Positions 25,532 to 26,551 of a stretch of DNA of 64,000 nucleotides are shown here, in pieces. Under the pieces are notes generated by a model. The model did not search any database and was not told the DNA's origin. It worked only from the letters and a program-made list of their open reading frames with translations. Source of the DNA: Escherichia phage 92CQ; sequence record PV682554.1, one strand, 5' to 3'. The translations under genes were made by a program, and so were the position numbers. The first letter of the stretch is position 1, and each line of letters opens with the position of its first letter.

Positions 25532-25966
25532 TTAGTTTAAAATTTCTTTTGCAATGGTAGAAGCAAGTTTTCCATCATATTGATTCGGATACTCTGCTTT
25601 AAGGTGTTTCATCATATCTGGCATTTTCTTGCCTGTCAAGGCAAATTCTTCGGCAATAGCTCGAAGATCATCTTCAGATAGCATTTCTGGTAAATATTTC
25701 TCCAGAGTGGTGATATCACGCATAGCTCGCTCACATTTGCTAAGGGAAGCATTAACTTTCTTAAGCGAGTCTAGTTCCTCTTTAGCGTGTGCAATACCAA
25801 TCTTAACAATGTTAATCATAATATCGTCTTCTGATTTGTTTAGATTTGCCTTTTGAGTACGAGCAAGGTCAAACTCACCAATAATATTAGTTAACAAAGC
25901 AAAAGCACCCTTATCGGTTGTACGTGCTAAGATACGATCTGCTTTCATTTGTGTCACAATAGACAT
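25532..25966 (-). CDS. YqeY/GatB-C-terminal-domain-like protein
   Basis: LEKYLPEMLSEDDLRAIAEEF...MPDMMKHLKAEYPNQYDGKLASTIAKEIL aligns by eye with the YqeY family C-terminal half. Confidence 0.6.
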   Translation of the reverse strand: MSIVTQMKADRILARTTDKGAFALLTNIIGEFDLARTQKANLNKSEDDIMINIVKIGIAHAKEELDSLKKVNASLSKCERAMRDITTLEKYLPEMLSEDDLRAIAEEFALTGKKMPDMMKHLKAEYPNQYDGKLASTIAKEILN

Positions 25967-25978
25967 TCTATTCTCCTC

Positions 25979-26551
25979 TTATTTGCTAATGCTTTGAGTC
26001 TTGTTTACAACACGGTTTATTGCCAGTGAAGCCCTAGGCTCCGCAATACCTGTTGCATAGATATAAGGATGACCTCTTGGAGACTCCCTCATACCGAATG
26101 AACCTAATTCTAAACCATATTCATCCTCTACGTCAACCCCAATATTAGTGGGTACTAAATATGTTTTAACTCCATAATAAGTAGAGAAGAAACAGCGCAT
26201 AGCGTTAGCATACTCTTCAATTGTAGCATCAGGGTAGAACTCAATCAACTCCAATTTCAAGAAAATATTAAAATGGGTATCATCTAAATTTTCTTCTGTA
26301 CGGTAACATGGTGTTAGTGCCATATACGGATTACCTGCTGCAAATTCAAAACCATCCTTCTCCATTTGCAGGAAAGATTGTTCTGCACTAGCTACATAGT
26401 ATTTACCGTTAGGATGCCCTAATGGGCGATCCTCTTTATTTTCTGGTAGTGTGTACGTTAGTATATCAGCATCCACGAGATATGGAACTTCTAACATTTG
26501 TGCAAATCGACCATAGTAATCAATAGCTTGAGCTATTACTGCAACATTCAT
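25979..26551 (-). CDS. hypothetical protein; possible class-II aminoacyl-tRNA-synthetase-like catalytic core (tentative)
   Basis: CYRTEENLDDTHFNIFLKLELIEF resembles class II motif 2; ATGIAEPRASLAI weakly resembles motif 3. Confidence 0.35.
   Translation of the reverse strand: MNVAVIAQAIDYYGRFAQMLEVPYLVDADILTYTLPENKEDRPLGHPNGKYYVASAEQSFLQMEKDGFEFAAGNPYMALTPCYRTEENLDDTHFNIFLKLELIEFYPDATIEEYANAMRCFFSTYYGVKTYLVPTNIGVDVEDEYGLELGSFGMRESPRGHPYIYATGIAEPRASLAINRVVNKTQSISK

Follow-up and report, generated by a model that had tools for sequence, protein, structure and literature searches.

A 190-residue class II aminoacyl-tRNA synthetase-like core and its MazG/HisE-like partner in phi92-like and other phages

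The question

What might a phage do with a protein of 190 residues that resembles the catalytic core of an aminoacyl-tRNA synthetase (aaRS)? The question is raised by Escherichia phage 92CQ (sequence record PV682554.1), of which we analyzed a stretch of 64,000 nucleotides (nt), here called the window. Between positions 25,532 and 26,551 the window encodes this protein next to a YqeY-related one of 144 amino acids (aa), and the initial annotation had taken the two, together with a "minimal nucleotidyltransferase", as a possible module acting on tRNA or on aminoacyl-adenylates. Both open reading frames (ORFs) exist exactly as claimed (25532-25966, 144 aa, and 25979-26551, 190 aa), each with a Shine-Dalgarno sequence. 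Comparison across viral loci identifies the conserved unit as the core together with an 83-aa MazG/HisE-like protein encoded immediately upstream, and not as the core together with YqeY. We propose that the pair is a two-subunit, sometimes single-chain, viral enzyme, in which an active adenylate-forming core derived from seryl-tRNA synthetase (SerRS) would work in an obligate complex with a MazG/HisE-like subunit that binds or hydrolyzes nucleotides. We give this a probability of roughly 0.7, which applies to the general statement only and not to the acceptor. The features on which the argument turns are the following.

26548..26799, minus strand: 83-aa MazG/HisE-like protein, PHROG 6408 (E 2e-43); GTG start, Shine-Dalgarno sequence AGGGGG
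26548..26551, minus strand: ATGA overlap of 4 nt, in which the 83-aa gene stops and the 190-aa gene starts, read directly from the sequence
25979..26551, minus strand: 190-aa minimal class II aaRS-like (SerRS-like) catalytic core, PHROG 4806
25532..25966, minus strand: 144-aa YqeY-family protein, PHROG 1460, 12 nt downstream of the aaRS-like gene

Pairing, fusion and distribution

Sixty-four IMG/VR loci with 8-kb flanks were combined with annotated and metagenomic loci, ORFs were called, and hidden Markov models (HMMs) were built from our own alignments; dereplication at 80% identity left 57 viral lineages or loci. In 54 of these 57 the core has a MazG-like domain either beside it, usually directly upstream, or fused to it, and no other protein family occurs in more than seven of the 57 neighborhoods. 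The ATGA overlap of the 83-aa and 190-aa genes suggests translational coupling, and the same 4-nt overlap recurs in 22 of 73 other loci as judged from longest-ORF calls. Acinetobacter phage Konradin has a protein annotated as "MazG-like" whose gene runs into the start of the core gene; in Pectobacterium phage phiTE and Caulobacter phage CcrPW the MazG-like gene is the ORF immediately upstream. Of 50,697 phage records searched with tBLASTn, 272 match the 190-aa protein and 262 match the 83-aa one, and their counts by taxon nearly coincide, with 111 and 112 in Escherichia, 61 and 53 in Acinetobacter, 13 and 13 in Caulobacter, 10 and 10 in Pectobacterium, 8 and 8 in Cronobacter and 7 and 7 in Brevundimonas phages.

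Nine of the 194 family proteins collected are natural fusions in which a MazG-like domain follows the core at its C-terminus, and the two are fused likewise in four viral loci (including gp131 of Microcystis phage Ma-LMM01) and in three contigs of metagenome-assembled genomes (MAGs). Such C-terminal fusion in other viruses means that the two subunits almost certainly act as one complex with two nucleotide-handling sites. An AlphaFold2 model of the fusion P0150 (predicted local distance difference test, pLDDT, 90.9; predicted template modeling score 0.82) shows the small domain as an extended segment containing a GYH motif plus three helices. A Foldseek search with this model was dominated by the aaRS domain and was uninformative on the small one.

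The core family is large and its members are short. An HMM search of 1.84 billion cluster representatives retrieved 1,598 members at E<=1e-3, 1,433 at 1e-10 and 1,072 at 1e-30, which puts the family at no fewer than 1,433 clusters at 50% identity; its proteins are about 175-200 aa long, with a median of 189 aa for the members collected. Two exact peptide patterns searched against 185,579 species-representative genomes matched only 15 loci (14 on MAG contigs and one on a 775-bp contig), so the family looks virus-restricted. Among these 15 MAG-type loci the MazG-like partner is adjacent or fused in 13, and YqeY is present in none.

A class II core and its apparently intact active site

Searches with the single 190-aa sequence gave tRNA-synt_2d as the best Pfam match (E 0.14) and, with phmmer against the PDB, only noise (FGF1, E 0.9). 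From 57 homologs gathered we aligned 39, with identity down to 29%, and the resulting family profile matched Aquifex SerRS (2dq3) in the PDB with an E of 4.1e-5, followed by AspRS, other SerRS entries and PylRS. The AlphaFold2 model of the core (pLDDT 95.6) has the antiparallel beta-sheet of the class II fold flanked by helices. For this protein the family profile and the fold search are informative and single-sequence searches are not. The resemblance to class II motifs 2 and 3, initially described as loose and weak, is therefore stronger than supposed, given the profile match and the invariant motif residues; profile and structure searches place the 190-aa protein in no unrelated fold and the 144-aa protein within the YqeY family.

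Twenty-one columns are invariant over the 39 sequences, among them R84, F97, E101, E148, S151, T167 and R173. Motif 1 spans residues ~10-27 with VPYLVD, of which P23 is at least 90% conserved, and a TxE-like loop reads SAEQS (residues 55-59). Motif 2 (TPCYRTE...H..IFLKLE, residues 80-101) holds the invariant R84, F97 and E101; ELGS follows at residues 148-151, and motif 3 (ATGIAEPR, residues 166-173) has T167 and R173 invariant or nearly so. When the alignment was compared with E. coli SerRS (PDB 6r1m) by hhalign (E 1.9e-6), VPYLVD paired with VPYLVN, SAEQS with PTAEV, TPCYR(D/T)E with TPCFRSE and FLKLE with FDKVE, and HMMER and hhalign alike align motif 2 to TPCFRSE...FDKVE of SerRS. The last third of the core was left unaligned by global hhalign, and the equivalence of motif 3 is based on pattern.

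In SerRS of T. thermophilus, the arginine and phenylalanine of motif 2 and the arginine of motif 3 are said to bind ATP, a Glu/Ser pair reportedly holds Mg2+, the glutamate of the TxE loop reportedly contacts the amino group, and Glu279 and Thr380 are said to read the serine hydroxyl. By pattern, we take E101 and T167 to be the counterparts of Glu279 and Thr380. If the register is right, all of these roles would be filled by invariant residues in the phage family. The 190-aa protein is a class II core whose active site appears intact, and we regard this assignment as solid.

Comparison with bacterial SerRS (class IIa) also shows what the phage protein lacks. The two share the stretches VPYLV, (S/T)AE, TPC(Y/F)RxE and F.K.E and, by pattern only, E..S and G(S/T)G.A..R. 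The core starts at about residue 167-186 of E. coli SerRS, where the SerRS catalytic domain begins, so the N-terminal coiled-coil tRNA-binding arm of ~100 residues is absent, together with several insertions (190 versus 430 aa), and without this arm the protein is not a canonical synthetase. A structure of arm-deleted E. coli SerRS bound to a seryl-adenylate analog provides a precedent (PDB 9qof). The serS equivalog (TIGR00414) does not match the 190-aa window protein and gives the fused homolog P0150 17.8 bits, far under the cut-off of 301.65; NCBIfam has no family for the core. Nor is its closest kinship with HisRS, and neither an anticodon-binding domain nor a HisG partner accompanies it. 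SerRS has no MazG/HisE-like partner, in contrast to the phage core, for which we consider pairing a constant trait.

The MazG/HisE-like partner

Pfam searches with 14 members of the 83-aa family gave sub-threshold matches to PRA-PH (HisE) in ten (best E 0.0013) and to MazG in three. A profile of 32 sequences placed 1vmg at the top of the PDB (E 0.018), followed by three entries of HisE (phosphoribosyl-ATP pyrophosphatase), all sub-threshold, and a 14-sequence MazG-like profile found nothing useful there. The entry 1vmg was deposited as "Hypothetical protein SSO3215" and is, we presume, a Sulfolobus MazG-type protein. PDB alignments pair the acidic motif of the family with that of 1vmg and of HisE 2a7w. 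This motif, EExxE-x15-ExxD, is invariant in 32 diverse sequences (E22, E23, E26, E42 and D45) and maps to helices one and two of the three that the fusion model predicts; the EExxE...ExxD pattern is the metal site of all-alpha nucleoside triphosphate (NTP) pyrophosphohydrolases. An N-terminal GYH motif is likewise invariant. With no significant curated match, this evidence is consistent with a MazG/HisE-like protein.

Phage MazG-type enzymes usually serve nucleotide-pool remodeling. The 83-aa protein is like MazG and MazZ of phages in being a small helical protein with an EExxE...ExxD metal motif, and differs from them in its size of ~80 residues with three predicted helices, its invariant GYH and its scores below Pfam thresholds. 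It differs also in being obligately paired or fused with an aaRS-like core, an architecture that we did not find described in the literature searched.

Other identities for this protein were considered and rejected. It is not the minimal nucleotidyltransferase assumed initially, as no such Pfam family matched at E up to 1 and the profile evidence is MazG/HisE-like. Nor did we find a nucleotidyltransferase family among 17 neighboring ORF products scanned (28548-38074 and 23877-28585, including ten at 29571-38074; the GS...DxD motif itself was not searched); the claim is not confirmed, the adjacent ORF at 26548-26799 being MazG/HisE-like. The ELSD sequence resembles an acyl carrier protein motif, but its serine (S44, the sole carrier-like residue) is alanine or threonine in relatives, which rules against a carrier protein; in the alignment of 32 sequences, too, this serine is not invariant. 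A "split SerRS", with the 83-aa protein as the detached N-terminal arm, is contradicted by the lack of a Seryl_tRNA_N match, the MazG-type metal motif and the C-terminal position in fusions. In Ma-LMM01 the upstream gp132 is not MazG-like, the MazG-like domain being the C-terminal extension of gp131. The N-terminal extension of the CcrPW core is not a MazG fusion either, since it is an RNA-polymerase alpha C-terminal domain (alpha-CTD) and the MazG-like gene is a separate upstream ORF.

Some MazG-like partners are longer. In Acinetobacter T4-like phages (locus L004, 3357-3980, Konradin gp118) and in locus L008 (5405-6001) a C-terminal domain of ~120 aa is added, and in loci L040 (7070-8017) and L049 (6953-7858) an N-terminal His-rich domain of ~220 aa. 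The extra domains of L004, L008 and L040 had no match in Pfam.

YqeY as a local addition

The assignment of the 144-aa protein to the YqeY family was correct: Pfam YqeY (PF09424) matches residues 38-143 (profile positions 34-143 of 143) with 30.4 bits, the gathering cut-off being 27, and B. subtilis YqeY (PDB 1ng6) is matched with an E of 8.2e-5. PF09424 is found in most of 37 homologs. No other catalytic domain is detected by Pfam, so that this is a stand-alone YqeY domain, and the GatB catalytic domain is missing from its total of 144 aa.

The proposal that YqeY and the core together form a module does not hold. YqeY lies within 8 kb of the core in only two of the 57 loci, namely the Justusliebigvirus group with its Klebsiella relatives and an unrelated 125-kb contig (L009, 812 nt away), as compared with 54 of 57 for the MazG/HisE-like partner. 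A tBLASTn search found YqeY in 151 phage records, mainly of Vibrio, Sinorhizobium and jumbo phages, and the overlap with records of the core or MazG-like protein is mainly Justusliebigvirus plus a few Klebsiella phages. The phAPEC8-like sister lineage (L012) has the helicase, MazG-like and aaRS-like genes, a 510-aa ORF and NrdD without YqeY, so YqeY looks like a Justusliebigvirus-specific insertion at the module. Because it is rare beside the module, it is not part of the core mechanism.

The 144-aa protein belongs to the same family as the YqeY/GatB C-terminal tRNA-binding helpers, from which it differs in being a separate gene found beside the core in only two of 57 lineages; interaction with the core is putative. 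The YqeY domain appended to D. radiodurans GlnRS reportedly raises tRNA affinity, and the tail of GatB binds the tRNA D-loop. By analogy, YqeY in this phage could be a tRNA-binding helper acting in trans.

The proposed enzyme and its acceptor

The large subunit of the proposed enzyme would be the 190-residue class II core, predicted to keep the residues that bind ATP, Mg2+ and the alpha-amino group. With these residues retained, the core most likely makes an aminoacyl-adenylate, and the link to aminoacyl-adenylate chemistry that had been suggested would follow from the conserved active-site motifs. Serine may reasonably be regarded as the leading candidate substrate. The small subunit would be the 83-residue helical MazG/HisE-like protein, with a metal site that appears intact and with probable translational coupling to the core. 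Our best guess for the acceptor, a tentative one that falls somewhat short of an even chance, is the 3' end of a tRNA or tRNA-like RNA, which would be charged or capped without regard to the anticodon. Nucleic-acid-binding helpers that differ between lineages may assist: YqeY here, the alpha-CTD in Caulobacter phages, and cysteine-rich, possibly zinc-ribbon, tails elsewhere.

None of the clues to the acceptor is universal, and they agree with one another. Genes for tRNA occur within 8 kb of the core in 14 of 56 representative loci and within ~1.5 kb in seven, and in six loci, three of which are probably related lineages, the module lies in or beside an array of 9-23 tRNA genes. Same-strand neighbors include RlaP, an "RNA repair pathway" Pol-beta nucleotidyltransferase (six of 57), and a CCA-adding enzyme (four of 57), and a TyrRS/TrpRS-type gene lies near the module in L008. 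Gene order in L009 is YqeY, metallophosphoesterase, MazG-like protein, core, macro domain and R2K ATP-grasp ligase. The N-terminal alpha-CTD of the CcrPW core scores 29.2 bits against a cut-off of 23.8 and is a helix-hairpin-helix nucleic-acid binder; CcrColossus (L058) has the same extended ORF of 284 aa. Cysteine-rich C-terminal tails with the look, by eye, of a zinc ribbon occur in several other core members. For the tRNA link put forward in the initial annotation, these associations are circumstantial support.

Among the tRNAs in the arrays of two metagenomic phage contigs, L046 (1980-2053) and L049 (967-1123), are amber suppressors with the anticodon CUA, which ARAGORN labels "tRNA-Pyl"; they hint at stop-codon recoding in those phages.

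Several observations weigh against the proposed enzyme or its tRNA acceptor. The core has neither a tRNA-binding arm nor an anticodon-binding domain, its motif-2 loop is acidic, ~6 residues shorter than that of E. coli SerRS and without the basic residues found there, and both subunits are acidic (median isoelectric points 5.1 and 5.3). Pfam tRNA-synt_2 (D/K/N) is the top match of the fused subgroup, AspRS scores near SerRS in the profile search, and Foldseek with the fusion model puts PylRS level with SerRS; at the sequence level the affinity of the core is not exclusively SerRS-like. The 83-aa protein reaches 15 bits for PRA-PH, below the cut-off of 21.3, and the MazG-like call is sub-threshold. 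Neighbors related to tRNA are found in a minority of loci, as raw counts. The modules of phi92-like phages, T4-like Acinetobacter phages and Ma-LMM01 sit among nrd, glutaredoxin and replication genes, and the nrd neighborhood in the first two groups fits a nucleotide acceptor equally well. Finally, the tRNA-acceptor model gives the MazG-like subunit no role. In our ranking of acceptors, a tRNA or tRNA-like 3' end comes ahead of a nucleotide or another non-tRNA acceptor, and we place a purely regulatory role low.

Alternative explanations

The strongest rival, somewhat unlikely in our view, is a tRNA-independent ligase in the manner of AsnA, EpmA/PoxA or the SerRS-like amino acid:carrier-protein ligases, which would activate an amino acid and pass it to a non-tRNA acceptor. 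This acceptor might be a nucleotide bound or made by the MazG-like subunit, such as a nucleoside monophosphate from an NTP, and the product an aminoacyl-nucleotide or an Ap4N-type dinucleotide for nucleotide metabolism, signaling or anti-defense. Such a ligase would account for the sole near-universal partner being a nucleotide-handling domain, often fused, for a core lacking any tRNA-binding element and carrying an acidic motif-2 loop, and for the location beside nrd, glutaredoxin or replication genes in phi92-like phages, Acinetobacter T4-like phages and Ma-LMM01. SerRS itself reportedly makes diadenosine tetraphosphate (Ap4A) from seryl-adenylate. On the other hand, no acceptor can be identified, a synthase fused to a hydrolase of the same nucleotide would be futile, and the tRNA arrays, CCA-adding enzyme, RlaP, YqeY and alpha-CTD fusion indicate a nucleic acid and not a small molecule. 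The known amino acid:[carrier protein] ligases (for example Bll0957, PDB 3mey) are zinc-binding proteins of ~300 aa that originate from methanogen-type SerRS and load a phosphopantetheinylated carrier protein, whereas the small neighbor of the phage core has a MazG-type acidic metal motif and its S44 is not conserved.

Another possibility, which we consider quite improbable, is repair or protection of tRNA 3' ends against immunity that targets the tRNA tail. The core would dock the CCA end, and either the MazG-like protein would take off a group that blocks it, for instance the 3'-pyrophosphate that toxins of the toxSAS/CapRel type add, or the 3'-OH would be shielded by aminoacylation. The CCA end is where CapRel and MenT act. 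Immunity directed at the tail of tRNAs exists in the form of Cas12a3 (PMC12851939), which speaks for this role. The tRNA-related neighborhoods of the module and the release of pyrophosphate by the MazG family would suit it as well. The idea is nevertheless speculative: strict conservation of the residues that bind the amino acid and ATP would not be needed for it, and MazG enzymes cut alpha-beta phosphoanhydrides of NTPs and not 3' phosphoesters. A PhageMaP essentiality screen was made with Bas63, which we take to be an unrelated Felix O1-like phage, and is uninformative on the module.

Still more doubtful is a non-catalytic, HisZ-like sensor or scaffold, in which the core would bind an amino acid, ATP or uncharged tRNA and regulate a MazG/HisE-like NTP pyrophosphohydrolase. 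PHROG 4806 carries the label "histidyl tRNA synthetase", HisE (PRA-PH) is the best Pfam match of the partner, and aaRS-like regulatory subunits are known as precedents (HisZ, the HisRS-like domain of GCN2, and Pol gamma B among the matches found). HisZ is non-catalytic and works with HisG, and it has lost the residues equivalent to the catalytic ones of motifs 2 and 3 and to the Mg-binding pair. In the phage core these catalytic residues and the Mg-binding Glu/Ser are instead invariant over very divergent sequences, SerRS is nearer than HisZ in both structure and profile, and a HisG-type gene is not a conserved neighbor.

A self-sufficient seryl- or histidyl-tRNA synthetase with a GatB-type amidotransferase, for which only database labels speak ("putative seryl-tRNA synthetase", "histidyl tRNA synthetase", "Asn/Gln-tRNA amidotransferase subunit B"), is, as a claim of membership, already refuted by the small size of the core next to the 430 aa of E. 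coli SerRS, the missing N-terminal arm and anticodon-binding domain, the failure of the serS equivalog and a 144-aa protein that consists of a YqeY domain alone.

The operon and other genes of the window

The region 25000-29000 of the window is 99.5% identical to Escherichia phage vB_Eco_PATM and 97-99% identical to more than 50 other Justusliebigvirus (phi92-like) phages, and the 144-aa and 190-aa proteins are 97-100% conserved among more than 50 phi92-like genomes. The genes form a tightly packed minus-strand operon in the order helicase, 83-aa, 190-aa and 144-aa genes, then a phi92 gp194-like ORF. All three small genes have good Shine-Dalgarno sequences, with GGAGG ahead of the 190-aa ATG and AAGAGGAG ahead of the 144-aa ATG. 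No minus-strand terminator-like site was found between operon genes, promoter-like and terminator-like sites do not exceed their frequency in shuffled sequence, and tRNA genes are absent from the window. The first gene of the operon is the following.

26810..28585, minus strand: UvrD/Rep-type superfamily 1 (SF1) helicase gene (Pfam UvrD-helicase, E 2.6e-18), directly upstream of the three small genes in the same operon

The helicase is a neighbor of the module in only four of the 57 loci. In relatives such as JohannJBalmer and PaulScherrer its gene has an insertion of ~1 kb, annotated as intein-containing, which is absent from the window copy; ECGD1 and PHB05 show the same two-piece match without an intein annotation. 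A DUF4326 protein (29914-30300, E 1.4e-21) lies ~3.4 kb upstream of the module, and DUF4326 is the commonest other same-strand neighbor of the module (seven of 57 loci, L014 and six others).

Downstream, the 545-aa ORF at 23877-25514 is a chimera in which a complete phi92 gp194-like protein (316 aa) and a glycosyltransferase are joined in frame, with the junction at 24564/24565. In phage EmilieFrey the two genes are ~15.9 kb apart, with NrdD, NrdG, a TerC-like protein, a phosphoribosyltransferase, a macrodomain and others between them; the junction joins EmilieFrey positions 47157 and 63036, with one base of the gp194 stop codon lost. In each of the 15 reference records listed, the region corresponds to two places apart from each other and not to this junction. 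The chimera is a natural deletion, an engineered deletion or an assembly artefact. Three consecutive glycosyltransferase genes (21960-25514) stand beside a primase-helicase, a family A DNA polymerase and an N6/N4 DNA methylase (13917-21678); they are called "disaccharide synthase" in relatives, and one has a weak match to a TET-associated glycosyltransferase. Genes placed in this way raise the question whether phi92-like phages glycosylate their DNA.

Further along, a protein encoded at 37085-38074 combines two CapR-homology domains with a T5orf172/GIY-YIG-like domain, and it is preceded by an AAA+ ATPase (35883-37010) annotated as FtsH-like in relatives. The sign of the GC skew flips near 14 kb and near 34 kb, at the switch points between plus-strand and minus-strand gene blocks. 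Three records named Campylobacter phage A145, A110a and B15 (MG065645, MG065689 and MG065650) encode proteins 98-99% identical (76% for B15) to those of phi92/phAPEC8-like E. coli phages, and their Campylobacter host labels are probably wrong or due to contamination.

Novelty and implications

The aaRS resemblance itself is not new, because annotation pipelines already use the labels "seryl-" or "histidyl-tRNA synthetase" and sometimes "MazG-like". The gene list of one genome paper has two MazG genes (g118 and g119) close to a "SerRS" (g121) and does not remark on it (PMC8953757). In the literature searched we found no paper that recognizes the pair of core and MazG-like protein, its fusions or its distribution, and no curated family for the pair was found in Pfam or NCBIfam. 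The chief new result here is the conserved MazG/HisE-like partner; in kind, the core belongs with the truncated aaRS paralogs. Its nearest known counterparts are the SerRS catalytic domain, the arm-less SerRS-like amino acid:carrier-protein ligases, HisZ with HisE, and the phage MazG/MazZ enzymes, and the pair departs from each of them in a defining trait. The truncated paralogs described so far (HisZ, AsnA, EpmA and the amino acid:carrier-protein ligases) each have an unexpected chemistry. The phage family, at ~175-200 aa, is smaller than any of these and is predicted to have a full active site, and to our knowledge its kind of partner, a MazG/HisE-like protein, has never been reported with an aaRS fold.

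The labels now in use ("seryl-tRNA synthetase", "histidyl tRNA synthetase", "Asn/Gln-tRNA amidotransferase subunit B" and "aspartyl/glutamyl-tRNA synthetase") mislead the reader, and other names should take their place. As a natural near-minimal class II core, the protein may be useful for testing ideas on minimal synthetases of "urzyme" size. The pair is widespread, small and apparently catalytic, and it is relevant to the tRNA-centered conflict between phages and their hosts. It may represent a candidate takeover or counter-defense function directed at tRNA or nucleotides in coliphages of the therapeutic type (phi92, phAPEC8 and rV5-related) and in T4-like phages of Acinetobacter.

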